A stretch of 64,000 nucleotides of DNA from an uncultured Verrucomicrobiae bacterium (GCA_963762685.1 CAVXLV010000006.1:167308-231307), one strand, 5' to 3'. Shown: positions 1,297-59,150, counted from the stretch's first letter. Notes: generated by a model not told the origin, from the sequence alone. Translations and numbers: made by a program.

Positions 1297-2635
1297 TTAA
1301 GCAGCGCGGCCTTCGCTCGCGTCCCGCTGGAATAAACTGCGGAACCCACGATAGCTCAGGAAGAGATTCAAAAGAAGAATCGGGAGAGTGGCGATGAGAT
1401 TGAAACGAAGGAGGCTGTGGACGCTGGAAAAGTCAGTCGAAGGAATGAGAGCGATCTGCGTGAGAACGGTGAGCGGGATGTAGAGCCATGAACCGCGAAT
1501 CCACGCCTTGGCCGCGTTCAAGACCCAAAGGGTGCCGGCGATGACGTTGGCCACGGTTCCGGCCACCATAAGAAAAAGTTCGCGGTGGAGATGAGCGTAC
1601 GATTTCCCGAGCACAAAGAGGAATTGATCGGGAAAAAAGGCCGCCGCGGCGAGCGTCAATCCCGCTAAAACGGTGACGCCGCCGCTAACTGGTGGCGTAT
1701 TGCATCAGCAAGCGCCGAAAGGTTTGCGCGCGGGCAAAGGCCGGCACGAAGATGTTCGTCATTAGTTGCCCGAGGACGGCGAAGATCATGGCCAGGCGAC
1801 CGAGCGCTCCGATCTCCGCCACGGCACCGGCGTGGTGGCCGAAAAAGCTGATCAGGAAGATCGTGATCTGCCCCTGCACGCAATAGAAGATGGCGTTGGG
1901 CGCCTGATTTTTGACAAATCCGAGCATGGCGCGCCGATCGTCGTCGTTCTCCGGTGCGTGCACATCGATAACACCACCCACGTAGCGTCGCATCATCACG
2001 AACTGGAGCAGCAGCGTCGCCGAGCCGACCAGAATGGCGATACTGGCGTCGAGAAAGAGGAAGGCGCAGCCCACGAGAACGACGAGACGCACGATCGAGC
2101 CGGTGAGGTCGATGCGCTGAATGCGCGGGACATCGGAACAAAGCCGCGGGACCACACTGAGGATGGTGAAGGAAAGTTGCGCGATGATCCCGGCGAGAAT
2201 GAATCCGATGAGGAGGAGAGAAAAGCGCGGCGAGGCGCCGTTGCGCACCAGCATCAGATGGAGAATTGGAAGGATGATTGCGATCGCGACCGCGCCGAGT
2301 TTCCAGCGCAACACCTGTGCGGTGCGGATCAATTGTCCGAAACGATATCGGTCCTGCCAGACGCGGCCGCCGATGGACATCAGGCCGATGCCGATTCCCA
2401 TGTCGGCCAGCACGGCGATCGTGCCCTGCATGGTGTTCGCGATGGTGAAATAGGCGTACTGCCGTTGATCCAGATAGCGGACAAGCAGGATCCCGCTGGC
2501 AAAGCCGATGATCTGCACGATCACCTGCACGGTCGCGAAACGGCCGACCATGCGGACGCGCTTCAGGGCACGGCGGACCATCGGCCCGGTCTCTTCACTG
2601 AGCAGTGGAGTCGAGCTGGGACCGAAGAAACGCAT
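1297..2635 (-). pseudogene. polysaccharide/oligosaccharide flippase (Wzx/MOP-like), interrupted by one +1 frameshift
   Basis: Two same-strand ORFs (1685..2635, 316 aa; 1297..1659, 120 aa) are both polytopic helical membrane sequence. The frame of the downstream piece is open back to about 1730 (..VSGGVTVLAGLTLAAAAFFPD..), so the pieces join near 1685-1720. The span is 1339 nt, which is 3n+1. Confidence 0.55.
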
Positions 2636-2856
2636 TAGTGAGGCGATGCTGGCACGAGAGGGAGGGAGGACTGTTTACGATGCTATACGGATGTGGGAGA
2701 GCGGCGGAGTCATCCGGTTGGCATCATACGGACGGCTCGCGTTCGTGGCGCGAAAATATTCGCAGCAGGCCCAGCCATGGCATTTCTCGGAGAGGCCACA
2801 CTGGCGAAACGGCTGCGGTTGATTGGATGCATCATTCGTTGGAGGGTCGTTAGGGC

Positions 2857-3678
2857 ATGGCTACAAAATCGCGCGCGGAAAAACAGGAAGAAGAAATTAT
2901 CGACCGCACTTCGCCGCCGGGGGAAGTGATCTATGAGGCCATCTACGCGGAGGGCGAGCATGAGCTGCATCGCAATACGACGGAGTTGGCGCTCTCGGGG
3001 CTGGCAGCCGGCCTTTCGATGGGATTTTCGATGATGGGCGAGGCTTTGCTCCGTCATTATTTGCCGACGGCGGGGTGGACGCCGTTGATCGCGAAGTTCG
3101 GCTACAGCATCGGGTTCCTCATTGTCATCCTCGGCCGCCAGCAATTATTCACGAAGAACACGCTCACGGTGATTCTCCCGCTGCTCCGAAAGAAGGACCT
3201 TCGGATCCTCGGCCACGTCGGTCGACTGTGGACGATGGTGCTGCTCGCCAATCTCGTAGGCGCGTTTATTTTCGCCACGCTCGCCGCTCATTCCGCCGCC
3301 TTCGTTCCAGAGGTGCAAAAAATCTTTGGCGAGATCGGACGAGCGGCGATGGAGCCGGCGTTTGGGACGCTCTTGGTGCGCGGAATCGTGGCCGGTTGGC
3401 TGATCGCCCTAATGGTTTGGTTGCTGCCGTTCGCAGACGCTGGCCGGATCTGGGTGATCGTGACTCTGGCTTACTTCGTTGGTCTGGCGGAGCTCCCGCA
3501 CGTCATCGCCGGTTCGGTGGAAACATTTTATCTGGTTTTGACCGGCGCGATCTCTTTCGGGGAATGCATCGGGCATTACCTCCTTCCCACGCTTTTAGGC
3601 AACGTGATCGGCGGTGTGACCTTGGTCGCAGTCGGCGCGCATGCGGAGTATTTCGAGGCGGAGAAAACCTCAAATTGA
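2857..3678 (+). CDS. formate/nitrite transporter (FNT) family protein
   Basis: 273 aa with a typical FNT N-terminus (YEAIYAEGEHELHRNTTELALSGLAAGLSMGF) and 6 TM segments. A GGAGGG Shine-Dalgarno lies about 9 nt upstream of the ATG. Confidence 0.75.
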   Translation: MATKSRAEKQEEEIIDRTSPPGEVIYEAIYAEGEHELHRNTTELALSGLAAGLSMGFSMMGEALLRHYLPTAGWTPLIAKFGYSIGFLIVILGRQQLFTKNTLTVILPLLRKKDLRILGHVGRLWTMVLLANLVGAFIFATLAAHSAAFVPEVQKIFGEIGRAAMEPAFGTLLVRGIVAGWLIALMVWLLPFADAGRIWVIVTLAYFVGLAELPHVIAGSVETFYLVLTGAISFGECIGHYLLPTLLGNVIGGVTLVAVGAHAEYFEAEKTSN

Positions 3679-3709
3679 CCAGCAACGTCGGGTTTGCTGA
3701 CGCGATCGA

Positions 3710-5156: not shown

Positions 5157-5162
5157 CGACCC

Positions 5163-7081
5163 ATGCAGACCGACGCCAAGAATCATATTGATCCCCACGC
5201 AGAATGGCTCGAGCCCGATGGCTGCGGTGGCTTCGCCAGCGGCACGGTCTCCGGAATTCGCACGCGTCGCTATCACGCGCTGCTGCTGACGGCGACCGCG
5301 CCGCCCGCGGGTCGTCTCGTGTTGGTAAACGGTTTCGATGCGTGGCTTGAGACGGAGCAGGGGAGCTACGCGCTTTCGTCGCAGCGTTACGTGCCGGATG
5401 TGGTTCATCCCGATGGTGCGACGAGGATCGAGTCGTTCGAATATGAGCCGTGGCCGCGCTGGCGTTTTCGTATCGGTGAGGAACTCCTGGTCGAGCAGGA
5501 GATTTTTGTGCAGCCGGGGCAGTCGTCCGCGATCCTTTCCTGGAAGATTGTGGAGGGAAAATGTGACGCCACGTTACGCGTGCGACCATTTTTCTCTGGG
5601 CGTGATTTCCACTCGCTGCATCACGAAAACGCGGATTTTCGCTTCGAGCCCGAGACCGTCGGGCGAGCGCTGCGTCTGGCGGCCGTATGAGGGTGTGCCC
5701 TCAGTCTCGGTCTCGACGAATGGACGCTACGCGCACGAGCCCGCGTGGTATCGAGATTTTTTCTACACAGAGGAAAACGCGCGTGGATTGGATGCCGCGG
5801 AGGATTTAGCCAGCCCGGGTGTCTTTGAGTTTTCGGTCGGTCACAAACGCGCCATCCTGATCCTGGAAGCGGAGGGCGGATCACCCGGCACCGGTCATCA
5901 TGTCGAAGCGCGATACGCGGCCATGCATGCAGCCGAGTGGCGACGACGCCGCGCTTTTCCGACGCCGCTGCACCGGGCCGCCGACGCTTATTTGGTTCGT
6001 CGCGGAGCGGGGCAAACCATCATCGCCGGTTATCCCTGGTTCGGGGATTGGGGACGCGACACCTTCATTTCCATCCGCGGCCTCTGCATTGGGAGCGGCC
6101 GGTTGGCTGACGCGCGCGATATTCTCGTCCAGTGGGCCGGCGCAGTCTCAGAAGGCATGCTGCCAAATCGGTTCACCGATCATGGAGATGAACCGGAATA
6201 CAACTCCGTCGATGCGTCCCTCTGGTTCGTAGTCGCGGTAGGCGATTATCTCCGCGCGAGCCATGGCGGCGGGAAGGATGCGGCCACCTTGTGCGCCGCG
6301 ATCGAGGCGATCCTGTCCGGCTATCACGACGGAACCAGATTTGGCATCCGGGCCGATGCCGACGGGTTGCTGCGTGCGGGCGCGCCGGGCCAGCAACTCA
6401 CGTGGATGGACGCGCGCGCCGAGGGCCGGGAAGTCACGCCCCGAATTGGCAAGCCGGTGGAGATCCAGGCGTTGTGGCTGAATGCGCTCGCGATTGGTTC
6501 CAATTTTTCGGATCGCTGGCAACCAATTCTGGAACGCGGACGCCGTTCCTTCGAAGAACGATTTTGGAACGCCGACGGTGGATATTTGCACGATGTAGTC
6601 GATTGCGAACACCGCGCCGGGACCGTGGATGCGTCCTTCCGTCCGAACCAGATTTTCGCCGTGGGCGGTTTACCCCTCGTTCTCCTGCCGCCGGCAAAAG
6701 CGCGAAAAATGGTGGATGCGGTCGAAGCGCGTTTACTCACACCGATGGGCTTGCGGTCCCTCGCACCTGAGGAAGCGGGCTATGTCGGCCAATACGCGGG
6801 CGACCCTGCGCAACGCGATCGATCCTACCATCAGGGGACGGTTTGGCCCTGGCTGATCGGGCCATTCGTCGAGGCTTGGCTCAGGGTTCGCGAGCATTCC
6901 GCCGAGGCGAAAAAAGAGGCGGCCGAACGTTTCATCATGCCCATGCTGGCGCACCGGCGAACAGGCTGGGCTGGGTCACATCTCAGAGATCGCGGACGGC
7001 GATGCACCGCACAAGCCCGCCGGTTGCCCGTTCCAAGCGTGGTCGTTAGGCGAATTGCTCCGGCTGGATTCAATCTTGTAG
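5163..7081 (+). pseudogene. glycogen debranching enzyme (archaeal-type GDE / amylo-alpha-1,6-glucosidase), two +1 frameshifts
   Basis: One protein is spread over three successive frames. Frame 1 covers 5163 to about 5660 (EWLEPDGCGGFASGTVSGIRTRRYHALL). Frame 2 covers about 5655 to 6955 ([76 protein letters not shown]). Frame 3 covers about 6955 to 7081 ([37 protein letters not shown], stop TAG at 7079-7081). The span is 1919 nt, which is 3n+2. The ORF-track extension to 7119 is out-of-frame read-through into tRNA-Asn. Confidence 0.85.
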
Positions 7082-7109
7082 CCGGCCACCGAAGAGGCGC
7101 CAAACATAA

Positions 7110-13659: not shown

Positions 13660-13689
13660 AGGTTTTGCATGTGAAGGCGTTAGGCCGCT

Positions 13690-14980
13690 TCAGCTTTTGG
13701 CGGCCGCGGATATCGCTTCCGCAACGACTTCGCCCGTGCGCGCGAGGTCGGCGAGCGTGTGCGCAGTGGAGAGAAACCCGGTCTCGAACTGCGAGGGCGC
13801 GAAGTAGATTCCGCGGTCCAGGCATGAGCGAAAGAAACGCGCGAAAGCCGCGCGATCACTGCGCTTCGCGGACGCCAGGTCGGTGACGGGTCCAGCGGTG
13901 AAGAAGAGGCAAAACATGGAACCGATGCGATGAAACGTCAGCGGTTGGCTCGTTCGGCGCATGATCTCCCGCGTCGCCGCTTCGAGTTGAGCGCCCAAGG
14001 TTTCCAGCATGCTCCAGCCATCAATTCGCTCAAGCTCGCGCAATTGAGCCAGGCCAGCCGCCATGGCGAGCGGGATTCCCGGAAAGCGTGCCTGCCTGAT
14101 AAACCGGACCGTCTGGCGAAAGGAAATCCATGATCTCGGCCCGGCCGCCAAACGCACCCACCGGCAGCCCGCCACCGATCACTTTCCCGAGCGCAGTCAG
14201 GTCCGGTCGCACGCCATAAATTTCCTGTGCGCCACCACGCGCGACGCGAAAGCCAGTCATGACTTCGTCGAAAATGAGCAGGGCGCCGTGGCGGGTGCAT
14301 TCGTCACGCAGTTCCTGCAGGAAATTTTCCTCAGGGAGATAAAGGCCGGCGTTCGCCGGGATAGGCTCGAGGATGATGGCGGCGATCGATTTTCCATTTT
14401 CGCGCAATGCAGCCCGCACGGCTGCGATGTCATTAAACGGCAGCGAGATGGTGAGCTCAGCAAACGCCGCGGGCACGCCCGCGCTGTCTGGACTGCCGTG
14501 GGTCAACGCGCCGCTGCCTGCATTCACGAGCAACGAATCGACGTGGCCGTGATAGCAGCCTTCAAATTTGATGATTTTATCGCGCCCGGTAAAGCCACGC
14601 GCGAGGCGTACGCAGGACATGGTGGCTTCCGTGCCGCTATTGACCATTCGCACTTTCTCGATCGAGGGGACCCAGCGGCAGATCAGTTCCGCCATTTCCA
14701 CTTCGAGCGGATTGGGAATTCCGAAACTCACCCCGCGCGTGGCCGCGGCCTGCACCGCCTCGACGACGACTTTTGGAGCGTGACCCAAAATCGCCGGCCC
14801 CCAAGTCCCGACGTAATCGATGTATTCCTTGCCGTCGACATCCCAAAGATGCGCACCTTCCGCGCGTTCCACGAAAAACGGTTCGCGATCCAAACCGCGG
14901 AAAGCACGAACTGGAGAATTGACGCCGCCCGGGATGCGTTGACGGGCGGCGGCGAAGAGTTCGGCGGAGCGAGATGACAT
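13690..14980 (-). pseudogene. hemL: glutamate-1-semialdehyde 2,1-aminomutase HemL, one +1 frameshift in a G/C run
   Basis: N-terminal piece (start ATG at 14980): [25 protein letters not shown]...EGCYHGH...DEVMTGFR...[11 protein letters not shown]-terminal piece (13690..14175): [11 protein letters not shown]...GIYFAPSQFETGFLSTAHT. On the reverse strand, the join reads gggaatcccgctcgccatg where gggaatccgctcgccatg would give GNPLAMA, so there is an extra base in the run at 14072-14074. The span is 1291 nt, which is 3n+1. Confidence 0.9.
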
Positions 14981-15229: not shown

Positions 15230-16133
15230 ATGCGTCGCTCCTGCTACTGCGCGGTCTTCTTCTTTAGTTTCACGGTTATGGCGCTGGGTAAATTGGTGCC
15301 GCTGACGGTGAAGGAAGTCAGTTTGATGTTGCGCAGCGGCTATTCGGTCGCCGCGGTGGAGAGCGACCTTGCGGCCCGGCACTTCGTCGGCCTCATCGAT
15401 GCCGCGGCCGAAAAGCAGTTGCGTGAAGTGGGAGCCTCGCCGGCTCTGATCGCGAGCTTGAAGAGCGAACGCTTCGCTCTGCCGCCGCAGGAGGTTCGTG
15501 GCCGTGCAGAAGGAGATGGAAACGATCGCGCGGCAGCGAGCTGAAATGGCAGCCGACGCGAAAAAATCGAACACGCTTTATCAAGATAAGGTGAACCGCG
15601 AGCGCGCGGCGGCCACGGCGGCTACGGCAGCAGCGCAGGTCTCCGGGCACGTGCTGGCTAAAACGGTGCAAGGCGACCTCATCACTTTCAAAGACGGTGC
15701 AGCGCAGGCTTTCGATGATCGGCTGCTCGATCGCAAAAAATTGATCGCCCTCTATTTCTCGGCCGGATGGTGCGGGCCTTGTCGTAAGTTTACCCCGGAC
15801 CTCGTCGCGTATTACCAGCGCATCGCGGAGGCACATCCGGAGTTTGAGATCATTTTTGTCAGCAACGATCGGTCGGCGACCGCAATGCAGAAATACATGC
15901 GCGACATGAAGATGCCGTGGCCGGCGGTTCAATTCGAGAAGATCGCCGCGCACGAAGATTTGCGGCAATTCTCCGGGACGGGCATCCCTTGCCTCGTCCT
16001 GGTGGACGCGCAGGGAAAAGTGCTTTCCCACAGCTACGCCGGGACGACCTATCGCGGTCCGCAAGCGGTCCTGGATGATCTGGATAAACTTTTCGCCGGC
16101 ACCGCGGCCGCGTCCGTGGCGCAGGCTCGCTAG
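15230..16133 (+). pseudogene. secreted thioredoxin-like (TlpA/nucleoredoxin-like) protein, probably one +1 frameshift
   Basis: 15230..15544 has a signal-like N-terminus and a small domain. 15498..16133 has a coiled segment and a thioredoxin fold: LIALYFSAGWCGPCRKFTP, FEIIFVSNDRS, GIPCLVLVDAQGKVL. The frames overlap at 15490-15500 and the span is 904 nt (3n+1). Two separate overlapping genes cannot be excluded. Confidence 0.6.
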
Positions 16134-16142: not shown

Positions 16143-18031
16143 TCAGGCGTCCGCGCGGGCTGCGGCGGCTAATTTCTCCAGCTCTTCCCAGCGCTTATAG
16201 AGAAGAACCACCCGCTGCCGCGCGCCCGCGAGTTTGGTCTCCAGTGCGGTCCATTCTTCTTTCGGGCGGAGGAACAAATCGGGATCGGCAAACGCCGTCT
16301 CCAGCCGCGCGGCTTCGTTCTCGGCGGTCAAGATGTCGGCCTCGATCGTTTCCAACTCGCGCGCTTCCTTATATTTCAATTTCCGCGGCTTTTGCGCCGC
16401 CGTGGCCGGGGACTGATTCGTCTTCGCGCCTGGAGTTCCGGTCGCAGGCGTCGCGCGCATTTCCAGGTAGCGATCGTAATTGCCGACATGATACCGCACC
16501 GAGCCGTCCTCCTCGAAAGCGAGAATGGACGTGCAGACGCGATTCAGAAAATAGCGATCGTGACTAACGACCAGGACGCATCCGCCGAAGGCCACGAGCG
16601 CTTCCTCGAGCAGACGCAGTGTTCCGAGATCGAGATCGTTTGTCGGCTCGTCGAGCATGAGGACGTTGCCGCCGCGCTTCAGGATTTTGGCCAATAAAAC
16701 GCGGCTGCGTTCTCCACCGCTCAACTGCGAGATGCGGGTGTTGATGCGGTCTTCGCTGAAGAGAAAGCGTCGCAGATACCCGCGGAGCGTGATCGTTTCC
16801 TCGCCGAGTTTCACCGCCTCGCTGCCGTCGCTCACTTCGTCCCAAACCGTCTTTTCCTCATCGAGCAGCATGCGGTTTTGATCGACGTAATTGATCTCGG
16901 TGCGCGCACCAATTTCGACCTCGCCCTGCGCCGGTTCCAGCTGACCGAGCATGAGCTTGAGCAACGAGGATTTCCCGAGACCATTCCGCCCGACAATGCC
17001 GAGCCGTTCGCCGTGTTGCAGCTGCAGGCTCAGGTTGCGAAACAAAGTGCGGCCCGCCATGTCCAGCGTCACATCGCGCAGCTCGATCACGCGATTCGCC
17101 AGCTTCGGCGCAGGCGGGATGATCAGATCGACGTCGAGTTCCGGTTCGGGCGCTTCCTGCGCCGCGAGTTCGAAGTAGCGATCGATGCGATCGACCGACT
17201 TCGTCCGACGCGCGCGCGGCCCGCGGCGCACCCATTCCAATTCACGTTTCAGGAACTTCTGCCGCTTCTTTTCCTGCATCTCCTCGACGGAGAGGCGTTG
17301 CGCCCGCGCGAGCAGGTAGTCGGTGTAGGTGCCCTCATAGTTGGCAAACTGACCGCGCGAGAGTTCCACGATGCGAGTAGCGACGCGATCGAGGAAATAG
17401 CGATCGTGCGTCACGAAGAGGCAGGTCCCGGAGTAGCGCGCAAGGAAATCTTCCAGCCATTCGATCGAGCCGGTGTCGAGATGGTTGGTCGGTTCATCGA
17501 AAAGAGAAAATCCGGGCGCGGAAGAAGTGCGCGACACAGCGCTACGCGGCGCTTCTCTCCACCGGAAAGCGTGCCGACGATCCGCTCCTCATCCGGCGCG
17601 TGCAGGTTGGTGATGAGTGACTTGACCCGATGTTCCAAACTCCAGCCGTCGGCGTGCTGGATTTGCTCGAGCAACAACCCGCTCTGCGCGCTCTCCGGCG
17701 GCGTATTCTCGTACTCGTCGAGCAGGTCGAGAATGCGTTGCGCGCCGCTCATGATGTTCGCGTGGACGGTGCGGCTGTCATCCAGATCGAACACCTGCGG
17801 CATGTAGCCGCTCACCAAATCGCGCCGCAACGCGACATCGCCCGAGTCCGGCTGCGTCGCGCCCGCGGCGATCTGGAGAAAGGTGGACTTGCCGGAACCG
17901 TTGCGACCGACGAGGCCGACGCGTTCGCCTTCCAGGATGGTCAGCGTGGCGCCATCGAGCACCGTCTGCGTGCCATGGCGGACGACGAGATTATTGACAC
18001 TGGCGACGGCAATTTTGACGGCTTCGGACAT
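16143..18031 (-). pseudogene. ABC-F family ATPase (Uup/EttA-like, two ABC domains + C-terminal coiled coil), one -1 frameshift
   Basis: N-terminal piece (start 18031): GLVGRNGSGKSTFLQ, LSGGEKRRVALCRALL. C-terminal piece: LFDEPTNHLD, GIVGRNGLGKSSLLK, LSGGERSRVLLAKIL, LMLDEPTNDLD. The join lies in an A/T run at 17500-17503. The span is 1889 nt, which is 3n+2. Confidence 0.85.
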
Positions 18032-18045: not shown

Positions 18046-19576
18046 CTAATCTGACGCAGCGGAGCCATTTCCTTCGTCGAGGTATTCCGTTTCTCCCACT
18101 TTGGAGACGCGCAGATATTGGCGCCATTTTCCGGCGGTCGCCTCCTCCGTGTTCGTGGAAACGCTGGCAGCGTTCTCCGAGAACGCTTCCGTGAGGACTC
18201 TGCCATCCAGCGTGTGCTCCGTCTTTAATCCCAGCAGATGCATCATCGACGCAGCCACATCGAGGTTACTGGACGGCAAATCGCTCTGCACTCCCACGCG
18301 GAAATCGGGCCCCGCCGCGAGCAAAAGATTATGCACATCGAAAGGACTGAGCGTGCCGTGTGTGCCCTTTGCGTCACCCTTCCCATTCGCGTCGATCATG
18401 CCGGCGGCGCCATGATCATTGCGTCGCTCGCTCCAGCGGAAAGACATCACCACATCCGGGCCTCCTGGCTTTTCCAGATGGACGCGCGTCGAGCGGGAAC
18501 GTGCCCGCGCTGGTCGCGCGCGAAAATATTACCCCGGTGAAATCTTGAGTCTGCAACCAACGGACCAAACGCGCATTCATCTCCGCCTCGTGATTTTCGA
18601 TGTAGAAAAAGATCGACCCGCCATTTCCGACCACGCGGATGGCTCCCGCTTCCTTCGCGTTCCGCTCTCCGTCCACGATTGGAAAACCATCGGCCGCGAG
18701 CAGGCCGGCTAAATTGAAAGGGCGGGCAATGGTGGAGAAGCCGTGGTCCGAAGCGATGAGGATATCGGTTTGCTCGCGGACGCCTTTTGCCGCCAGCGCT
18801 TTGAGCACTACCGCCAGGTTTGCATCGGACGATTTGATCGCAGCCAACGCCTTCTCGCTCCCCGGCGCCTCCGCGTGCGCAGATCGATCCGGTTCTCCCA
18901 TCCAGAGCACGGAAAATTCCGGCACGCCGTCTTTCCACAGCACCTCAGTCAGCGCGCGCGTCGTCCAGGCATCTTCCGTCACGCTCGGCAATTCGTTTGT
19001 CTTTGGATAACGACCCAGCAGTTTCTCGATCTCGCCCTGAGCCTCCGCCGGCAGCGCGATTCCTTCCACCAGCGTGACCGATTTCCCTTTCCGCCCCTCG
19101 CTCTTCCGATCGAATAGCAGGGGAGCGCTTTTGGTTCCCGCGATGGCAGTGGTGCCTCCGCGCGCCTGCACCAGTTCAGCGATCGTCGGCACGCCCAGGA
19201 AATGGCCGCCGCTCGACTTGTCCTTCGCGTGAATTACCTCGGCGCCGTCGATGCGGGCGGGCTTATTTTTGGCGGTTTCGGGAAGATACTCGTAGTTGCC
19301 AATGGGTCCGCTCCGGCTGGGATGAACACCCGTCGCCAGCGCCGCCGCGTTCACGGTGGTCAGGGTGGGATAAATCGAGTGGTGCCGCTGAAACGTCACG
19401 CCCTCCTGCGCCAACGCCCAAAGCGTGGGCGCATTTTCCTTGGTGGCGAAATCCGGCCGCATGCCATCCCAAACCACCAGGACCACGTGGGCGGCCCGGC
19501 CATGCGCAGGCTCGCCGGAAACCCGTGCGGAGGCGGTCGCAGCCAACAGCGCGCAAAAAGCGAGGCGCGCGATCAT
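18046..19576 (-). pseudogene. secreted alkaline-phosphatase-superfamily nucleotide pyrophosphatase/phosphodiesterase (NPP), one +1 frameshift
   Basis: Signal peptide MIARLAFCALLAATASA. Motifs: VVLVVWDGMRPDF, YPTLTTVNAAALATGVHPSRSG, ASDHGFS. The C-terminal part continues in ORF 18046..18453 (DVVMSFRWSERRNDHGAAGMID...GTHGTLSPFDVHN). The join lies in the T run at 18470-18473. The span is 1531 nt, which is 3n+1. Confidence 0.8.
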
Positions 19577-20949: not shown

Positions 20950-22406
20950 TTAAGGAATGGGCGGGACCGGGATGGGGGATGGGGAGGGCGAGGCTTCCCC
21001 TTCTTCTTTCTCCGCCTGGGCCGCGGCAGCGGGCGGCGGCGCGGCTGTGTTGGGGATGAACCAACCCGTCGTCCGTTTTTCCTCCACGAGGTATTTGTTG
21101 GCGACGCGTTTTACGTCTTCCGCTTTCACCTTCTTGAGCGCGTCGTCTCCGTTGACGTAGAGCGTCCAATCGCCCGCCGCGATGAATTCGTTCAGCTTGC
21201 TGGCGATCGCGAAGGAGCCATCGCGCGCATAGGAAGAAGCGGCCACCATCCGCGCGACCGCAGCTGACACTTCGGCATCGGTGACGCCTTCTTTTTTCAC
21301 GCGTTCCAACTCATCCAGCACGATCTTTTCGACCTGCTCATGAGTGCTGCCGGGAGCGAGACTGGCGTAGAGAATATACAGCGAAGGGTCGTGGAAAAAT
21401 CCCACATCGCCCGTCACGTCGGTGGTGAGATTTTTGTCGGTTAAACGCGCGATACGCGCGGCTGTTTTTTCCATCAGTCAGGATCACATCGAGCACGCGC
21501 AAGGCTGCCTGATCCTTGTTCACTGCTTCCGGAATCTTGTGCGCAAGCGCGAGCACGCCCAGCTCGCCCGCGCGTTTCACAGTTCACGCGACGCGGTCCG
21601 GTTTGCTCCGGCTCTTCCGTGTAAACCACCGGAATCGGTTTCGGCGCCTTCGGGATCGCTCCGTAGTTTTTCTTGATCAATTCCAGCGCCTTCGCCGGCT
21701 CGAAATCGCCGATGACCGAAACGGTGGCGTTATCCGGCCAGTAAAACGTGTCGTAAAATTCGCGCAGCTTTTCGATCGGCACTTTCTCGATGTCGCTCCG
21801 CCATCCGATGGTGGAGTGATGGTAGGGATGGGCCATGAACGCGGTCGCGTAAATTTCCTTCTCCATCGCCTGCGTCGGATCGTTTTCGCCGATCTCAAAC
21901 TCGTTCCGCACCACCGTCATTTCCGGTTTCCGATCCTCTTCGCGCAGCCAGAGATTGCGCATCCGATCGGCCTCGATCGCCATGTAGCCGTCCAGGTTTT
22001 CGCTCCCAATGTTCGCGTAGTAGTTGGTGCGATCCAGCCAGGTGGTGGCGTTGTAGATTCCGCCCACGCGTTCCAGGAGCTGATCGACGCTCGTGCCTTT
22101 TTCGCGATTGAACTTGGGCGTGCCCTTAAACATCAGATGCTCGAGCAAATGCGTCGCGCCGGTCGTGCCGGTGACCTCGTTTCGCGAACCGACCCGGTAG
22201 GTGACCATGAAGGTCAGCGTCGGGCTCGAATGTTCCTCGAGGAGCAAAACCTGCAGGCCGTTTTTATCCAGCGTGTATTCGGAAATCGGGCCCACCGTTT
22301 TCACGAAGGTAAAGCCGGCAACCTTGGCCGGCGTAGGAGGTTCCGCGGCCAGCGCGGCGGAGCTGACGGCAATGAGAGAGGCGAACAGGAGAAGTCGAAC
22401 TTTCAT
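20950..22406 (-). pseudogene. M16 (pitrilysin/insulinase) family zinc peptidase, two +1 frameshifts
   Basis: The signal peptide MKVRLLLFASLIAVSSAALA starts at 22406. The zinc motif GATHLLEHLMFKGT (HxxEH) and NATTWLDRTNY are present. The protein continues through three frames: 21474..22442, then 21338..21580 (VKRAGELGVLALAHKIPEA..), then 20950..21474 (DKNLTTDVTGDVGFFHDPS..). The joins are near 21581-21585 and at the 21443-21445 run. The 20950..22442 span is 3n+2. Confidence 0.8.
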
Positions 22407-22508: not shown

Positions 22509-23490
22509 TTAGGCGTGCCCGGCTTGCACGATTTGATTGAAGCGAAAGCCGTCGATGTCGGTTTTGATCTGAATCCAGACCGGGAAGTGATCGGACATCT
22601 GATAAGTGAACTTCTGCCGGGTGTAATTCTTCCCCGGGAAGAGCTCTTCGATGTGCGCGTCGTCGATGAAAAAATCGAGCGCCCCGCCGTGATTGGTGAA
22701 GTTTTTTGGAACGGTGGCGCGGTGCAGGATCTGATCGTAACGCGCATCGAGCGTCAGGTTGGTGCCTTTGATCACGCGATCGCCGACCTTCAACTCCACC
22801 AGCGGGGTGGGAATTTTCAAGCCGCGGCTGGCGAGCGCGGCGAAGAGTTTGTCGGTTAATTTCGGGGTATTAAAATCGCCCATCACCAGCAGATCGGTGT
22901 CCTCCACATACTTGCTTTGGAAGCGGGTATCGATCCAATCGGCCAGCAGCTTCAATTCGGCTTCGCGGCCTTTCGCGGTGCCCCAGCGCGCATGCGCGGC
23001 GATGGCGAGGAAATCGAAATTTCCGGAACGAAACGAGCAGAGATAGGGCGCGCGCCAGAACGAGCCGGTGGCGAGATATTCTGTGCCCTTTCTTCACCCG
23101 TGGGACATCGAGCTCCGCGGCGAGGCCATTAAAGGTGACGGCGCGGCGATCGAAAAGGAAAGCGGTCCGCTCGTTATTCCCGCCATCATCCGGCACCCAA
23201 TCGGAATAAACCACCCGCCAGCTCGGGCCCAGATACGGCAGCACGCGGCTGAGATCCTCCAGGTTATCGCGCAGCTCGATTAAGGCGATGAGATCGAATT
23301 GCCCGAGAATCTCCGCGATGTAATGGATCGCCGCCTCGGTCCGTCGCACTTTGCCAAACTCACGAATGTTCCAGACGGCGATGTTGATCGACTCGTCCAG
23401 TTTCGACGCGGGAATCTTGCACGCGGCAATGCGCTCGCGCAGGACGAGTAATCCTGCTGCGATCTCGGGGGTAATCTTTCCGTGGTGCAT
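22509..23490 (-). pseudogene. endonuclease/exonuclease/phosphatase (EEP, DNase I-like) family protein, one +1 frameshift
   Basis: N-terminal piece: INIAVWNIREFG, DLIALIELRD, ERTAFLFD. C-terminal piece: FDFLAIAAHARWG, LLVMGDFNTP, SDHFPVWIQI. The join lies in the ccc/ttt runs at 23086-23091. The span is 982 nt, which is 3n+1. Confidence 0.75.
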
Positions 23491-41131: not shown

Positions 41132-42437
41132 GAGAGAGCCTCCATGGGTTCCGAAAGGGGCAAAGATGAAGACTCCTGAGGGAGCAAAGTCCGCCGCGGA
41201 CAAACGGGGATATATTTTTGCAGCCAAACGATGGAATAAAAAACCCACATGCGCCAACGGATGGAGAAGGTGGTGCCGACATTGCCGCCCAGGATTGCGT
41301 TCACGGCGGGAGGTAGCTGCAGGAAATCCTGCGGATGCAGGAAGACTTCGATGAACTCCTTGCTATACCAGGCATCCACGAACCGCAGATAGACCTTCAT
41401 CGCGCGCTGCACGGTCCGCTCATAGCGCGCGAAGAGGCGGCGTTTTTGGCGGGGTCGGTCGAGCACAACGTGCAAGGCATCGGCCGCGCGCTCGCCGGCC
41501 ATGATGGCGAGAAAAACACCGCTACTGAAGACCGGGTCGATGAAGCCCGCAGCGTCTCCGGCGAGCAACCAGCGGTCGCCGGCCAGCTTCTCATTTCGAT
41601 ACGAAAAATCGGCCGCTACCGTCACCGGCGTCGCGCGGGTCGGAGGCAAACATGCGGTTGGCGATCACCGGCTGCTCGGCGAGCGAGCTTTCGAGAAATT
41701 CTTCCGGACTCTGCTTCGCTGCTTTGAAAACAGCCGCGTCGAGCACGACGCCGATGCTCATGCGTTCTGCGCTGAGCGGGATCATCCAAAACCAGCGGTC
41801 GAGCGCGCGCACCAGCCGGGTCAGCGTTCCATCAATGCCCGGCTCGCGCACGACGCCGTCATAGTGCGCGAAGATCGAAACCTTTTGCAGGTGCGCGTAG
41901 TTTTTCTTGAGCTTGAAATGCGAACCCACCACGGAGTTCCGGCCACTGGCATCGACCACATAACGCGCAGCCAGGTTCCGAGGCGCGGAGCCCTTTCCCT
42001 GAATGCGAAGCTGCACTTTATCCGTCCGCGAATTCGACCCGCTCGACTTTGGTTTCTTGCTGCACTTCGGCGCCACTTTCCGCCGCGTGATCGAGCAGGA
42101 TGTGATCGAACTCCGCGCGCGTGACCTGATAGGAGCGATCTGTTTGCGATCCGAACCCATTTTTGAAATAAAACTTCACGCCTTCTTCGCTGCAGGCGCC
42201 CACCATTTCGCCGCCAAATTTCTCCATGAAACCGGCGCGCTGAAACTTTTCCTGCACACCCAGCCGCTGAAACGCTTTCATGCTGAAGGGCAGAAGCGAT
42301 TCGCCAATGTGGAAGCGGGGGAATTTCTCGCGTTCCAAAACAATCACGCGCCGCCCGGCACGGGCCAGCAGCGTGGCCGCGGTGCTGCCCGCTGGGCCTC
42401 CGCCGATGATCGCTACGTCGTAAAGTTCCTCTGCCAT
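41128..42437 (-). pseudogene. FAD-dependent oxidoreductase, flavin-dependent halogenase / geranylgeranyl-reductase-like, two +1 frameshifts
   Basis: Three frames carry one protein. 42018..42437: YDVAIIGGGPAGSTAATLLA, VLEREKFPRFHIGESLLP. 41591..42160: RYVVDASGRNS, and DRWFWMIPLS, which matches the WxWxIP motif. 41128..41649: WLLAGDAAGFIDPVFSSGV. The joins are at about 42020-42024 and at the 41648-41650 run. The span is 1310 nt, which is 3n+2. Confidence 0.75.
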
Positions 42438-49765: not shown

Positions 49766-52225
49766 ATGATAACCGAAATCCGCTACGCCCTGCGCCAACT
49801 GCTTAAGCATCCCGGCTTCACCCTCGTCGCCGTCCTCGCGCTCGCGCTTGGGATCGGAGCCAACACCGCCATCTTCAGCGTGGTCAACGCGGTCCTTTTG
49901 CGCCCGCTGCCCTATCCGGAGCCGGATCGGCTGGTGATGATTCGCGAAACCACGGCGACGTTTCCGAGTGGCTCGGTCAGCTATCCGAACTTCCTCGATT
50001 GGCGGGAAGGTCAACGTTCTTTCACCGACATCACGCTGACGCGCCGGGAGAGTTTTAATTTCTCGTTGCTGGCGAGCGAGGCCTCGCCCGAACGCGTGGG
50101 CGCCGGCCGCGTGACGTGGAACTTCCTCGCGATTCTCGGGGTGCAGCCGCTGCTCGGGCGCGACCTGACGGAAGCGGATGATGTGCCGGGCGCAGCGCCG
50201 GTGGCGGTGATTAGTGAGCACTTGTGGAAATCGAAGTTCGGCGCGTCACCGAAAGTGCTCGGTCAACGCATCCTGCTCGATGGCGTCCCAACCGAAATCG
50301 TCGGTGTGGCTCCAGAGGCACTGGCTTTTCCCCGCCTCGCAGAAGTGTGGGTGCCGATGGCTGATTTGCGGAAAGAGCAGGGCATCACGGCCCGCGGCAA
50401 TCATCCCGGATTCTCCGCGCTGGGACGGTTGCAGCCGGGGATATCGCTGCAGCAGGCGACGGCGGATTTGAATACGATCGCGGCAGAACTGGAGCGCCTT
50501 TACCCGGATTCGAACGCCATGCGGCGCGTGCGGATGGATCTGCTGCTCGAAGCGGCGGTGGGCGATTACCGGCACAGCTTGCATTTGCTCCTCGCCGCGG
50601 TCGCATGCGTGTTGCTGATCGCCTGCGCGAACGTGGCCAATCTGCAATTGGCGCGTGCGCTGGCCCGCAGCAAAGAACTGGCGGTGCGTGCTGCTTTGGG
50701 CGCGAGCCGCTGGCAGTTGATGCGGCAGATGTTAACCGAAAGCGTTCTCCTCGCTTTCGCGGGCGCGCTCGCGGGCGTGCTGCTCGCGATCTGGAGCCTG
50801 GATGCAATCCTCGCGCTCAGTCCCGCGCGGGTGGCGCGTTTCCAGGAAACGCGCATCGACCTTTTGGCGCTTCTTTTCACTGGCGTCGTGGCGCTGGGCG
50901 CGGGGATCTTGGTGGGAATCTGGCCCGCCTGGCGCGTTTCGAATACTGCGCAATTGGCCTTGGTGCTGCACGAAGCCGGCTCGCGCGGCGGGAGCGGCGG
51001 TTCCCGGAAACAGCGCGCCCGCAGTGCGCTCGTAATCACGCAGGTCGCGCTCGCCGTGATCTTGCTGGCGGGCGCGGGTCTGACCTTGAAAAGCTTTTGG
51101 CGGGCGCAAAATGCTCCGCTCCATTTTGATCCGACACATCTGTTGACGGTCGGAATTGCGCTGCCCGAGACGCGTTACAAGGAAGACGAAAAGCAGGTCG
51201 CGTTTTTTGCACAACTGGTCGAGCGCGTGCGCGTCTTGCCGGGGGTGGAAGCGGCGGCAATTGGTTCCAATATTCCCTTCGACGACAGCGAATGGGACAG
51301 CAGCTTTCACATTACCGGCACGCCGGAGCCGCCGAAAGGCCAGGAGCCGTCGGCGGAGGTCAACATCGTCTCAGCCCGACTACTTCCGCGCGCTCGGCCT
51401 GCCGATTCTGCGCGGCCGCACTTTCGGACCGGAAGACGTGATGGAGAAAGGCCGCTCGCGTTCCGTCATCATCGATGAAACGCTCGCGCGGAAATATTTC
51501 CCGAACGAGGACCCGATCGGGCGTCAGATCGACGACAATCAAACGTTCGAGAAAGAGCCGCCGCCGCTCACGATCGTGGGCGTCGTTCCGCGGACGCGGA
51601 ACGAAGCAGTGGGAGAGCAAAACGTGGAGATGCTGCAAGTTTCACCATCTGTATTTCGCCGCGTCGCAATACGCCACGACCGGCAGCACGCTGGTCGTCC
51701 GAGTGAAAAACGGAGTCGACCCGCTCTCGCTTGTCCCCGCCGTCCGGCGCGAGGTGCAGGCTCTCGATTCGGCGCAGCCGTTAGGCCCGGTGGCGACGAT
51801 GGAAGAAAACATCGGCAGCAGCCTGGCCACGCGCCGCCTCACGATGGTCTTGCTCGGCTCGTTTGCTGGCTTGGCGTTGACTCCTCGCCAGCCTCGGCTT
51901 GTACGGCGTGATGGCGTTGAGCGTGACCCAAAGAACGCGCGAGCTCGGGATTCGGATGGCGCTGGGTGCGGCGCGCGCGGATGTCTTCCGGTTGGTTTTG
52001 GGGCAGGGGATTTTGCTGGTTGGAATCGGGCTGGCCGTGGGTTTACTCGGCGCCCTCGCGACTGGGCGGGCGCTCGCGAGCGTGCTCTACGGAGTGGGCT
52101 CGATCGATGTGGTGGCCTTGATCGTAGCCTTGGTTGCGCTGGCCAGCGTGGCCATGCTGGCGTGCTTCGTGCCCGCGCGGCGGGCGACGTTGGTGGATCC
52201 GATGGTCGCGTTGCGCGACGAATAA
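49766..52225 (+). pseudogene. ADOP-family duplicated FtsX/MacB-like ABC permease, paralog 3, three +1 frameshifts
   Basis: Start at 49766 ([51 protein letters not shown]). It continues via the 51156 frame ([28 protein letters not shown]), the 51475 frame (FHHLYFAASQ..STLVVRVKNG..LATRRLTMVLLGSFAGLAL) and the 51899 frame ([33 protein letters not shown]). The joins are near 51371-51377, 51637-51642 and 51880. The start coordinate mod 3 runs 2,0,1,2. Confidence 0.8.
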
Positions 52226-52817: not shown

Positions 52818-54893
52818 AAGGGAAAGACTTTGAACCGGCTTTGCGCTCTCGCCAAGGTGACTCGGAGAATTGCCGTCGCGGCCTGTTATTCGCTCGCGTC
52901 CCGACGCGCTTTCCGCGCGCGCGAGATGCGTTTCGTAATCCAAATACGAGCACGAGCGCGACCACCCACGGCGCGAAGAACGCCACCGCCACGCCGATCA
53001 TGCGCAAGCTCCACATCAACGCCGTCACTCCTTGCATCAGCGTGCGCCGGATGGTGGCGAAAAGGCCGCTCTCGTCGGAGACAATGCTGGGCTGGCTGTA
53101 AACCTGGATATTGATATCGGCTGGCGCGGTCTCTTCGTTCACCGTGCCGCGACGGTCCTGGCGTTGCACGCTCACGTCTTTCACCTTCCCGAGCTGATCG
53201 AAACTGCTGACCAATGCCGCGTAGTTTTTCATCGGCACGCGCAGCGAGACGTTGGCGGATTCCTGGCCATCGGGAGAGCGATTGAACGTCGAGCTGCGGA
53301 TCTCCGCGCCGGATTGCGCAGCCGTCGCTTTCAAGCGCGCGACCTTCTCCGCCACGCCGAAGTGAGGATACTCAGCGTGGTCGTTTGCAGCGCGGGCTCT
53401 TGTTCGTTGCGCGAGATGGTGATGCTGAGTTCCACCTTGTCGCGCTCCACTTTCGCGCCTTCGCCCATGCCGCTGCCGCCTTGCGCGATGCGATCGGTTT
53501 GCTCGTTATAATTCTGCACGCGGCCCATGCCTTTGATGCGTTCGATGAGCGCGTCGGCTTCCTCAGGAACGATGAGCAAAACGAGCCGCGCCGTCGCTTC
53601 ACCGGAGCCGTCGCGATCCAGAGTGGAGGACGAAACTTGAGCCTTCGCGCCGTCGACCAACGTTTTTACTTCGGCGAAGGTCTTCTCTACCTCGGCGGAG
53701 AAAAGCGCGAGTTGCGCCCGACGTTTCAAGAGGAACGCAGCCGGCACGTCCATGTCCTTCTCTGTGAGCGTGACCGTCACTGTGGCGAACGCGACCAGCG
53801 CATCCATATATTTGAGTTCGCCTTGCATCTGCTCGATCGACGCGCGGACGCGTCCGAGTTCCTTCTCCACCTCCAGCAGATCGGCGACTTTGTTGCTCGA
53901 GGTCTTGAGGATCTCGAGCAAACGCGTCTCCATGATGCGCGCGTTTTTCAGACGCGAATCGGTGTCGAAATATTGCTTCGTCACATCGTCCGTGCCGAGC
54001 GTCTGATTCTTCAGTTCGCCGAGCGTGCGCAGGGTCGCGAGAAACGCGTCGAGCGTGTCTGGCAGCACCTTCACCACAACAACTCCGCGCAGCTTGCCAT
54101 TGGCCTGTTTTGAAGAACTGCTCGTCGCGACGTAGCCGCGCATATCCGTGGCGGAAGCAGTAATTTTTTGCACCGCTTCCTCAAACTTTAGAACTTCGAG
54201 TTCAACCTGCGCGTTGCGGACAAGCTTGCGGTTGGCGTCGGGCACAACCGAGGCCGCTTCGCCTTCTGGCGGAGGCGCATTAGCCGGTCGTTCTTCCATA
54301 AACTCGGGCGGCTCCGTCTCCGCATCCGGTGCTGCTAGCGTTTCGTTGCGTCGAGCCAGCAAAACCGGCTGCGGCGCTGCGGGTGCTGCCAACGACTTCG
54401 CCGCTCCGGCGATCGCCTCCGTGGGCGCATCTTGTGCCACCATCATTTCGTTCTGTGCGGGGCCCGCAGTGTCGTTTCGAACTGAGGTCTTTCCTGCAAA
54501 CGCAGGCCGTTGCCGCTGACGTTCTTCCGGGACGGATGCTTCGCCGGTCAGCAAACGGCCTACCTGCACCATGCTTAGTAGCAGCGCGGCGACTGCTGCC
54601 ACCTGCGTGGCCCGGAACCGAAAGAAGCTGGCCAGCAGAGGGACGAGCCTGGCGCGCTGGGCCGCGTTCCTGCGGAAACCAGAAAGAACGCGTCCTTCGA
54701 AAGCGTGGTCGGGTTTCATTTCGTCAAAAGCATTGGTGATCATGGTGTTCATGGAGAGTTCCTGCTGGTGCAAGGCGCGGCACGTCTCGCATTCGGCGAG
54801 GTGATCCTGCAGCTGGTTGCGTTCGTCGGGGGAAAGCTGGTCGTGCACGGAGGCGGCCAGCCACGGTTCGATGTCGTCGTGAATGGTGGGCAT
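52693..54893 (-). pseudogene. anti-sigma factor: zf-HC2 N-terminal domain + TM + repeated DUF4349-like periplasmic modules + C-terminal TM; at least one -1 frameshift
   Basis: N-terminus: HLAECETCRALH (zf-HC2), then TM segment VAAVAALLLSMVQVG. DUF4349-like modules start at VELEVLKFEEAVQKI.., at ALFSAEVEKTFAEVK.., and (in ORF 52693..53355) at VAEKVARLKATAAQSG..VSLRVPMKNYAALVSSFDQLG... C-terminal TM segment MIGVAVAFFAPWVVALVLV. The join is near 53355-53365. The 90-aa Arg-rich tail that overlaps the HD gene looks out of frame. A second -1 shift near 52925-52945 would give ..RIWITKRISRARKARRDASE with a stop at 52886-52888. Confidence 0.65.
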
Positions 54894-54898
54894 GGTGG

Positions 54899-55569: not shown

Positions 55570-56671
55570 TCAGAAAATTTCGACCACGCAACCTTTGGTC
55601 ACGAGATCTTTGATCCTGGCTGCATCCCAGTTCGCCGTGCGAATGCAGCCGTGACTGGCGGCACGACCGATCGTCTCGGGATTGTTCGTGCCGTGCACGC
55701 CGACGTGCGGCTTGTTCAAGCCCATCCACAAAACGCCCACCGGATTGTTCGGACCGGCGGGAAGATTGTAGAAGTTGTCGGTCTTCACGCCGGAATTGAG
55801 AACGCCTTCATCGTGGCGAAACCACGGGAGCGTGGCGATGCCGACAATCTTCCACGTGCCGATGGGCGCGGGGAGGGTGGAGGAGCCGGGCGTGATGGGA
55901 AATTCGGCGATGATCTTGTCGCTCTCATCGTGGATTTCGAGAAAACGCTCGACCGTGTCGATCACGACTTTGCGTCCGGCCAACGCGGGATCTTCCGGCT
56001 TAAAGCCTTCGCTCAGCTTTTCGATCTCGAATGGCTGGACGTTTGGCACGTTGAGCGTGTCGCCGGGTTTGAGCTGATCGAAATTGATCCCGGGATTGAT
56101 CTGGCGAATGAAATCCTCGGCCGCGTGGAAGCGTTCGCAGACAAACTCCAGCACCGAGCCGTAATTGAGCGCTTTCATTTTCGCCTGCTCGGACGGCTTC
56201 GACGAGGTGGCGCCAACGAATTTCATGTCGTCCGCGCGAATCTCGTAGCGTGTGTAGGGCTCGGGCACTTGGTCGAGCAACGAGGCATCGACCGCACCGT
56301 TAATTTCCATCCCGTTTGCCTTCTTGTAAGACACGAGCGCTTTGCGAAAAAACTCGCCCATCTTGCCGTCGATTTTTCCTGGTCCGAAGCCGTGATTATC
56401 GAGGAAAATCTGCAGCCGCACGCTCGTCTGTTCATCGTAATTCGGCAGGGCGATCATGGGCGTGGGCTCGGGGCGCGGGCGCGGTGGAACGATGGGCGCG
56501 GACGGCTTTTTCGCGGGTGGAGCGGCTTTCGAGACGCGGCCTCGGCGTGGGTGTGGCATCGGGACGGGACCACGGCCAGCGACCCGGCTTCGGCGTCGCT
56601 TTCGGGGCGGCAAAGACGGCAGTAGGGGCGAGTAAAAATGCGAGCAGCGCCAGAGTGGCGAAAAATTTCAT
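55570..56671 (-). pseudogene. L,D-transpeptidase (YkuD) with peptidoglycan-binding domain, one +1 frameshift in the Pro-rich linker
   Basis: The signal peptide MKFFATLALLAFLLAPTAVFA is in ORF 56432..56671 and the body is in ORF 55570..56613. PG-binding block LQIFLDNHGFGPGKIDGKMG. Catalytic block VGVHGTNNPETIGRAASHGCIRTAN. The join is somewhere in 56500-56590. The span is 1102 nt, which is 3n+1. Confidence 0.8.
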
Positions 56672-56776
56672 GAAGGCACAGAATCGGCGATGAGGAAGAA
56701 GAGCGCAATGAGCGGCGGTAAAACGCGCTTGGGAAATCCGCGTTGAAATATCTTCTCCGGCCGTGCCTCTGAGCTT

Positions 56777-59150
56777 ATGAAAGTCTCTAGAATGCGCAGC
56801 TTTATTTCACGCTACACCCACTGGTTGCATACGCAGTGGCCCGCCGGCACGGTCGAAAAATTACCCGCGTCGGGCGAGAACGGCCTAACGAATGTGGAGG
56901 GCGTGCGCATCGTGGGCGATCTCACGGGCATTCCGCTGCTGAAGTTTTCTTCCCACACCGGGGCCGAGGCGGTGCGGGCTATTTTGCGCGAAGCGGAGTT
57001 TCGTAAAGGAGAGGGCGAGACGCTGGATCTCGCGATCATCGGCGCGGGGGTCGCGGGCATCTCGGCCGCGATCGAGGCGCGGAAAGCAGGGCTGAACTTT
57101 ATCGTGCTGGAGGCCACGGAAATTTTCTCCACGGTCGTCAACTTTCCGAAAGCAAAACCGATCTACACCTACCCGACGGAGATGAAACTGGAGGGCGGGC
57201 TGCATTTTCACGCTGAGGTGAAGGAGGCGCTTGCTGGAGGAGATGCGGGAGCAGGCGGAAGAGGCGGAAATCGAAGTGACTCCGGGACGCGTGGAGCGGA
57301 TCGAACGCAGCGGCAACGAATTAATCCTGCACCTGGCAGAGGGCGAGCCGGCGCGGGCGCGGCGCGTGATCGTGGCGATCGGGCGGAGCGGAAATTTCCG
57401 CAAGCTCGGCGTGCCAGGTGAGGAGCTCGACAAGGTTTCCAATCGTCTCTTTGACCCGAAGGAGTTCGCGGGGAAAAAGGCGCTGGTCGTGGGTGGCGGA
57501 GACTCCGCGCTGGAAACAGCGATCGCGCTCACGAAGTCGGGCGCAGACGTGACGCTTAGTTATCGGGGCGAGGAATTATCGCGCGCGAAGCCGGACAACA
57601 TCGCCAAGGTGCAGATGCTGGCGGTGAACGCGGAGGCGGATGTGCAAGTGGAACGGCCGAAGTCCGAACGCGTGAATAGCGCGATGACTTCCGGCATGCG
57701 CGGCGCGAAAGGCGGCGTTCTGAAGCTGGCCCTCGGCACGAACGTGACGCGAATCGAGCCTGAGCAAGTCTTCCTCAAAAATGGGACCGAGGAAGCGCTG
57801 CCTAACGACGTCGTTTTCACCATGCTCGGCCGTGAGGCCCCGCTGGATTTTTTCCGCCGGAGCGGATTGCATGTGCGCGGCGATTGGCGGCCGTGGACGT
57901 GGATCAGTTGTATCGCGTTCGTTCTTTTCTGCGTGGTGCTCTACCACTGGAAGAGCAATCATCCTCTGGAGTTCCCGGTGCAGAAGTGGGCCAACCAGCA
58001 GCAGGCCTTTCCCTACAATGTGCCGAAAGCGATCGACGCAGTGGGCGGCAAGATTGCGGAGTGGTCCAGTCGCGAAACGAACCTGCTCTACACCATCAAA
58101 CGCGGCCTCGGGAATCCGGCGTTTTATTACACGCTCGCCTACTGCACGTGCGTCTTCGTTTTCGGCCTCCGCCGAATTCGCCGGCGCCGCACGCCCTACG
58201 TCACGTTGCAGACGATTGTGCTCATCTGCTCGCAATGTATTCCGCTCTTCATTTTGCCGGAGTTGATTCTGCCGTGGATGGGGCGGAACGGCCTGTTCGA
58301 GCCCGGACAGCCGCTGCATTGGCTGGCTAATCAATTATTCGAAAGCTACGACGGCTCGTTAGGCCACGAGCGCGCCTACTGGCGGGCTTACGGTTTCATC
58401 CTCGCTTTCCCGCTGAACGTTTACAACGTTTTCACCGATCACCCGCTGTGGCTCTGGCTCGGGATTAGTTTCGTCCAAACCTTCGTCATTATTCCGCTCA
58501 TCATCTTTCGCTGGGGCAAAGGCGCTTACTGCGGCTGGATCTGCTCCTGCGGCGCGCTCGCGGAAACGATGGGCGATACCCAGCGCGAGAAAATGCCGCA
58601 CGGGCCATTCTGGAATCGGCTCAATATGGTCGGGCAAGCCGCGCTCGTTTTCGCATTCGCGATTCTCGGATTGCGCATCGCCGGCTGGGCGCTGGGCGAG
58701 GATTCGTGGGCCACGCTTTGGTATCACAAGCTCTTCGAAGGCATCCCGTTTCTGAATTACGCCTGGAGCGTCGATATCTTCATGGGCGGCATCCTCGGCG
58801 TGGGACTTTACTTTTGGTTTAGCGGTCGCGTTTGGTGCCGCTTCGCCTGTCCGCTGGCCGCTCTCATGCACGTCTACACGCGCTTTTCGCGTTACCGCAT
58901 CTTCCCAGAGAAATCGAAATGCATCTCGTGCAACGTTTGCACCTCCGTCTGTCACCAAGGCATCGACGTCATGAGCTTTGCCAACAAAGGACTTCCGATG
59001 GAGGACCCGGAGTGCGTGCGTTGCTCCGCCTGCGTGCAACAATGCCCGACCGGCGTGCTCGCGTTCGGTCGCTACGATGGCCAACAGCAGATCGTGCTGG
59101 ATAAGATTCCCGCTTCGCCCGTGCGGATGCGGGAAGGGAGGCAGGGTTAA
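56777..59150 (+). pseudogene. membrane-bound NAD(P)/FAD-binding oxidoreductase fused to a polytopic 4Fe-4S ferredoxin domain (NapH/MauN-like), one +1 frameshift
   Basis: N-terminal piece: DLAIIGAGVAGISAAIEARKAG (FAD dinucleotide fold). Second fold: KALVVGGGDSALETAIAL. Then TM helices with Cys clusters GWICSCGALAE, CRFACPLAALMH, CISCNVCTSVCHQG and CVRCSACVQQCPTG. The join is near 57228-57231. The span is 2374 nt, which is 3n+1. Confidence 0.7.

Follow-up and report, generated by a model that had tools for sequence, protein, structure and literature searches.

Pseudogenes that stem from reductive evolution are found, for example, in Mycobacterium leprae and in recent host-restricted lineages. 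Databases also contain spurious pseudogenes, which arise from the sequencing platform, the assembler and the coverage (Cooley and Wright, PMC11017572). A 'high quality' rating of a metagenome-assembled genome (MAG) does not preclude numerous frameshift errors, and polishing is needed for bins below ~40x (Sereika et al., PMC9262707). Frameshifts persist after polishing of long-read data, as described in the proovframe preprint, which also gives the raw-read errors of PacBio continuous long reads (CLR) as insertion-dominated, 8% vs. 3% (10.1101/2021.08.23.457338). The DNA considered here is a 64 kb stretch, termed the window, from an uncultured Verrucomicrobiae bacterium (C6:167308-231307 of the 3.36-Mb assembly G000). 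Fifteen of its protein genes are interrupted by 25 frame junctions. Comparison with related genomes indicates that these breaks are very probably residual single-base consensus errors in a long-read-type MAG and do not reflect biology.

The G000 assembly consists of 23 contigs with 60% G+C; its completeness is rated at 91% and its contamination at 1%. The named homologues nearest to the window HemL are from soil MAGs of Chthoniobacterales (Verrucomicrobiota). The genus comprises 33 further species-representative genomes, about a quarter of which have 7–30 contigs and the remainder 50–700. Two of these, G029 and G010, are the closest relatives; both are fragmented assemblies and show 82–86% nucleotide identity to the window. 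Stop-to-stop open reading frames (ORFs) from their orthologous loci were aligned to the window by tblastn, ORFs from G002, G003, G008, G004, G005 and G012 were added to this screen, and the base-level cause of the junctions was determined from blastn and MAFFT alignments against G029 and G010. Around hemL, synteny with G008, G003 and G002 spans just 5–15 kb.

What is a single, unbroken ORF in a relative corresponds colinearly to between two and seven pieces of the window in differing frames. Twenty-three of the 25 junctions need a +1 shift and two need a -1 shift, a bias unlikely to be due to chance (binomial P=2e-5). At the nucleotide level, compared with all available relatives, the window carries one additional base at 23 sites and lacks one base at two, and the relatives agree among themselves against the window at all 25 sites. 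Thus orthologues continue intact in one frame across one-base indels, which is the pattern of assembly indel artefacts. The initial annotation of the window had estimated about 26 frameshifts in at least 15 conserved genes, nearly all +1, with some 23 insertions and three deletions. The direction and the 23 insertions are borne out by the alignments; a second anti-sigma shift is not, and the deletions number two, in the ABC-F and anti-sigma genes. Also borne out is the disruption of hemL, a gene of an essential pathway. It is split in two pieces that match positions 3–305 and 300–427 of the NF000818 profile, and there is no other hemL copy in the genome. The ABC-F pieces similarly match positions 17–201 and 181–537 of the family profile. 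Several hits each are seen in genes such as those for the exopolysaccharide (EPS) synthase (six), a permease (three) and a glycogen-debranching-type enzyme (two). The junctions are as follows (window coordinates; +1, extra base in the window; -1, missing base):

1689..1694, minus strand, 466-aa-type membrane protein (the name 'flippase' is unverified), +1
5638..5655, plus strand, GDE (GDE_N/GDE_C), glycogen-debranching-type enzyme, break 1, +1
6954..6962, plus strand, GDE gene, break 2, +1
14071..14079, minus strand, hemL, +1, GG to GGG read on the plus strand
15496..15498, plus strand, thioredoxin-like protein, +1
17501..17505, minus strand, ABC-F ATPase (EttA/Uup-like), -1, missing base
18486..18491, minus strand, type I phosphodiesterase / nucleotide pyrophosphatase (NPP), +1
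21443..21445, minus strand, M16 peptidase, break 1, +1, AA to AAA
21580..21584, minus strand, M16 peptidase, break 2, +1
23083..23093, minus strand, endonuclease/exonuclease/phosphatase-family (EEP) protein, +1, with G002 as the sole reference
26870..26876, plus strand, EPS synthase (polysaccharide deacetylase + GT2; orthologue ~1,240 aa), junction 1 of 6, +1
27223..27232, plus strand, EPS synthase, junction 2 of 6, +1
28194..28198, plus strand, EPS synthase, junction 3 of 6, +1, isolated base, no homopolymer
28963..28966, plus strand, EPS synthase, junction 4 of 6, +1
29183..29185, plus strand, EPS synthase, junction 5 of 6, +1, isolated T
29535..29538, plus strand, EPS synthase, junction 6 of 6, +1, AAA to AAAA
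33419..33444, plus strand, histidine kinase, +1, isolated G at 33444
41640..41644, minus strand, FAD-binding, halogenase-like enzyme, break 1, +1
42022..42024, minus strand, FAD-binding, halogenase-like enzyme, break 2, +1
51373..51378, plus strand, MacB_PCD/FtsX permease ('ADOP' paralogue 3), junction 1 of 3, +1, isolated A
51635..51638, plus strand, MacB_PCD/FtsX permease, junction 2 of 3, +1, isolated G
51879..51881, plus strand, MacB_PCD/FtsX permease, junction 3 of 3, +1, isolated C
53355..53360, minus strand, zf-HC2 anti-sigma / DUF4349 protein, -1, missing base
56524..56568, minus strand, YkuD L,D-transpeptidase, +1, less exact, with a 6-nt in-frame difference nearby
57226..57231, plus strand, pyridine-nucleotide-disulfide oxidoreductase / 4Fe-4S protein, +1, T to TT

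Nearly all of these positions fall within a few bases of those first proposed; the NPP site differs by ~15 nt and the first FAD site by ~6 nt. A possible second shift in the anti-sigma gene at ~52935 was dropped, as the alignment stays in one frame to the last residue. Five long genes that had been named as intact are each a single ORF. Gene names were confirmed by Pfam scans of the intact orthologues for the GDE, thioredoxin-like, phosphodiesterase, M16, EEP, deacetylase + GT2 synthase, histidine kinase, FAD/halogenase-like, MacB/FtsX permease, zf-HC2 anti-sigma, YkuD and Pyr_redox/4Fe-4S proteins. The 'flippase' name did not gain such support: the intact 466-aa G029 orthologue of this gene (window 1297–2635) has no Pfam match at E<=1e-5.

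A candidate 26th junction at ~5160 was rejected as a shadow-frame artefact, since the segment upstream of it is a shadow frame that is rich in arginine and contains five stops. At window 5155–5177, the spacer that separates GDE from the preceding gene (end 5156) is ~35–40 nt shorter than in G029 and G010; this is ordinary intergenic length variation and no frameshift. At window 13671–13676, in the 30-nt spacer between an 863-aa gene (11068–13659, minus strand) and hemL, shadow-frame alignments of G010 and G029 switch frame, and therefore one-base indels appear to occur in noncoding DNA as well, as errors would. Near the end of the window, a short G029 ORF aligns over 61841–61986 with a possible -1 junction at 61969–61978. 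On the G029 contig compared, nothing corresponds to the region from 60.0 to 61.5 kb.

The breaks are not confined to the window. ORFs from ~0.9 Mb of relatives' DNA, mostly from G029, were compared with the whole assembly, and 117 junction clusters were found outside the window in 370 kb of orthologous coding sequence (94 +1, 23 -1). A strict filter, which requires the codon-position G+C pattern of true coding sequence on both sides of a junction, leaves 72 of these (62 +1, 10 -1). The rate outside the window is 0.19–0.32 per kb and that in the window, with the same caller, 0.32–0.43 per kb; heterogeneity of rate between contigs of G000 is not significant (P=0.15). One clean single-base gap relative to G029 accounts for 88 of 141 clusters, with 78 insertions and 10 deletions. 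By extrapolation, the assembly holds roughly 500–1,000 such sites. Two checks that the initial annotation had proposed gave concordant answers: in close relatives the genes are intact and differ by one base from the window, and the rest of the assembly has like lesions with a like insertion bias.

Genes affected in G000 include essential ones present in a single copy. Initiation factor IF-2 (infB) is split at C13:408686-408696 into pieces matching profile positions 3–421 and 418–584, ribosomal protein S7 (rpsG) is split at C13:282551 (profile positions 1–90 and 90–154), and GlmM and TruB are split as well. The lesions are assembly-wide and fall in genes regardless of function. The truncated 316-aa HemL of the contig is a singleton among 5.8 billion proteins; 118 of its 119 nearest homologues (86–92% identical) are full length at 412–477 aa, and one has 353 aa. 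Elsewhere in the assembly, near-identical aminotransferase-family matches are present at G000:C14:50865-51782 and G000:C4:9423-10340, each within a 1,446-aa open frame. The pair may stem from duplication of a contig or from a strain variant that was left uncollapsed in the bin.

The relatives provide controls. When G000 ORFs were reciprocally aligned to G029, 39 'junctions' were obtained without filtering. These were rejected as mirror images of G000's own shifts, seen via the open shadow frames of DNA with 60% G+C, and the codon-position G+C filter removes all but one of them. After filtering, G029 has at most one junction in 208 kb and G010 at most one in 43 kb, and both mirror a window site. 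Few-contig relatives do have junctions of their own: G003 has eight in 20 kb, three of them in hemL at positions unlike those of the window.

The RNA polymerase genes rpoB and rpoC give a broader view of the genus. Frame splits within contigs are found in these genes in five of nine genomes with <=30 contigs (G002, G008, G036, G037 and G039) and in none of the 25 genomes with >=50 contigs, where rpoB/rpoC pieces end only at contig ends. Fisher's test gives P=5e-4, which is approximate as the 34 genomes are related by kinship; the basis of the grouping was contig number and not the presence of splits. In an alignment of rpoB-rpoC from nine genomes (regions G036:C7:81500-90000, G037:C2:128300-136800 and G039:C3:556000-564500 among them), private one-base insertions number 50 in G037, 23 in G036, nine in G039 and one each in G008 and G002; G029, G038 and G003 have none. 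Private one-base deletions total five. As 50 frameshifts in RNA polymerase are not viable, the signature must be technical, and G000 shares this signature. The load follows assembly type and not phylogeny, with contig number as the proxy for assembly type. G036, G037 and G039 are only 66–87% complete despite their 7–30 contigs, which probably reflects their indel error load.

The sequence context of the sites differs from initial expectation. A preference for homopolymers had been suggested, but 35% of the window's inserted bases lie in runs of >=2 vs. 44% for background, and those in runs of >=3 amount to 17% vs. 15% of random positions. At least seven insertions are isolated bases with differing neighbours (1690, 28195, 29183, 33444, 51373, 51635 and 51881). 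Genome-wide, the inserted base equals a neighbour in 28% of cases vs. ~45% expected (P=0.003), and the rpoB-rpoC insertions of the congeners show the same property (23% vs. ~45% expected, P=2e-5). Insertion sites avoid homopolymers, if anything. No 4-6-mer is enriched around the sites of the window. In the genome-wide set, the 6-mer CGCCCG/CGGGCG is found within 6 nt of nine of 78 clean insertion sites (simulation P<0.002), about 12 of the 78 fit a change of CGGC to CGGGC, and seven are in GCAGC-like contexts. In 10 cases vs. three expected, the middle base of a GCA/TGC triplet is the inserted one. Examples of clean insertion sites are C13:282547, C13:408696, C11:315817 and window 14071, which is C6:181378. 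This weak context signal may suit an error mode specific to a basecaller or polisher and perhaps linked to DNA modification.

An uneven distribution of shifts had also been proposed. The densest cluster, six sites in 2.7 kb in the EPS synthase, has P=0.08 once scanning is allowed for. Neither the variance/mean ratio of 1.25 (P=0.22) nor the largest site-free gap of 9.4 kb (P=0.28) departs from uniform scatter. Site spacing in the window fits a uniform Poisson process.

These observations are best explained by a highly contiguous, long-read-type MAG of a soil Chthoniobacterales bacterium that would have been left unpolished or insufficiently polished. Its errors would be overwhelmingly spurious extra bases, scattered approximately at random at ~0.2–0.45 per kb throughout the assembly. 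Each would shift the frame, and gene callers would then report in pieces or shortened form a gene that the organism has intact. With such a scatter, any long gene has a good chance of at least one hit. The sequencing platform and the insufficient depth or polishing are inferred parts of this explanation. The initial annotation also favoured uncorrected long-read consensus errors over pseudogenisation, and that choice fits all the comparative tests run.

It should be pointed out that several observations weigh against consensus error. Contig number is a mere proxy for long-read assembly. The rpoB and rpoC genes (~8 kb) of G000 itself are unbroken, where about two hits are expected (P ~0.1–0.2). 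Classical Nanopore errors are homopolymer-linked and those of G000 are not. No contig or protein of the same species was found in a protein look-up, a metagenome scan or a search of 5.8 billion proteins; an intact neighbour protein in the window gave no match in the exact-protein look-up, and the metagenome scan with this protein returned 80 loci with a best amino acid identity of 89%. With the N-terminal HemL piece as query, the sole hit above 92% identity among the 5.8 billion proteins was the truncated product of the window itself. The EPS synthase has six hits vs. ~1–1.5 expected, an excess that is not significant (P=0.08), and any single site may hide a real lesion among the errors, with this gene as the likeliest place.

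The last point raises the question of whether the sites are a mixture, mostly assembly errors with a few true lesions or strain polymorphisms. Genes for surface polysaccharides often vary between strains, and this together with the number of hits in 2.7 kb makes the EPS synthase the best candidate. All six of its sites, however, are single extra bases of the type found in the other genes, the synthase contains no nonsense codon, its pieces are 78–95% identical to G029, and the clustering does not reach significance. A mixture therefore appears unlikely.

Real and recent pseudogenisation, by reductive evolution or a mutator burst, would mean that the 15 genes, and hundreds more in the genome, have been lost by one-base insertions. 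The indels are unambiguous in the deposited sequence, and the repeated hits in the EPS synthase, permease and GDE genes are what accumulating pseudogenes would show. Further signs of decay were nevertheless not found. None of the ~8,300 codons aligned across the 15 broken genes is an in-frame nonsense codon, and the nine stops seen in alignments all fall in a shadow frame, in overshoot codons at junctions or ahead of the start. With the codon usage of the window, about 3% of random substitutions would create a stop. In neutral decay, where the substitution:indel ratio is taken as 5–10, 25 indels would be accompanied by ~4–7 nonsense changes, and the probability of seeing none is 0.02 to 6e-4 under this assumed ratio. 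No larger deletions were seen in the 15 genes, and the pieces are still 61–95% identical to the G029 protein. The marks of genuine pseudogenes, i.e. mixed lesions, a deletional bias and dispensable genes, are thus missing. Bacterial mutation has a known deletional bias, and the 78:10 ratio of insertions to deletions is opposite to it. In addition, single-copy infB, rpsG, glmM and hemL are broken, which is not viable, and spacing is Poisson-like. Few-contig sister assemblies have private insertions of the same kind elsewhere in the sequence, with as many as 50 in rpoB-rpoC. The fragmented G029 and G010 are without such breaks, and none of 25 assemblies with >=50 contigs has rpoB/rpoC split within a contig. 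Gene loss on this scale is very improbable.

Recoding, with genuine extra bases that expression would bypass by programmed +1 frameshifting, quadruplet decoding or transcript editing, would account for the directional bias (23 of 25 sites need +1) and for downstream frames that are fully open and conserved, but it can be set aside almost entirely: contexts are heterogeneous with no shared motif of k=4–6 enriched in the window, the sites have neither a stop codon nor a slippery run and the zero-frame stop follows only after tens to hundreds of nucleotides, the extra base is missing at the same positions in all relatives so that nothing is conserved, ~11–20% of genome-wide events are -1, and the rpoB-rpoC load, which ranges from 0 to 50 in the congeners, goes with assembly type. 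That the extra bases are truly in Chthoniobacterales DNA, with a motif-independent correction at the RNA or ribosome level that restores hundreds of genes including those for IF-2 and S7, is scarcely credible.

The significance of the consensus errors is one of quality control only. G000 is the species representative in the collection searched. About 30% of the window genes are split or truncated. The consequences are inflated pseudogene counts, skewed protein-family statistics and completeness estimates, and a distorted metabolic reconstruction, with an apparent loss of the C5 haem pathway (hemL) and of the exopolysaccharide synthase. The sister representatives G036, G037, G039 and G003 are worse affected. 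The broken genes are to be read as intact, and their 'loss' supports no biological claim.

With respect to known systems, the window resembles prfB-type programmed +1 frameshifting in that a +1 shift would restore the protein. It differs in having no conserved shift site, no in-frame stop there and no conservation in relatives, and in the hundreds of sites in unrelated genes. The resemblance to pseudogenes of reductive evolution lies in the many frameshifted genes, some with several hits. Unlike these, the broken genes are without nonsense codons or larger deletions; the lesions are insertion-biased, hit essential translation genes and show a Poisson-like scatter, and within the genus their number follows assembly type. 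Nanopore errors are classically described as homopolymer indels, whereas the errors of G000 are ~8:1 insertions that avoid homopolymers, with a subset in CGGC to CGGGC and GCAGC-like contexts. The closest likeness is to the indel errors of long-read-only assemblies and MAGs, which IDEEL-type tests measure and proovframe addresses. Here too conserved ORFs are split throughout the assembly, essential genes included, with no other decay; the splits occur where assemblies are highly contiguous, the short-contig relatives examined being free of them, and G000 still scores ~91% complete despite its split genes.

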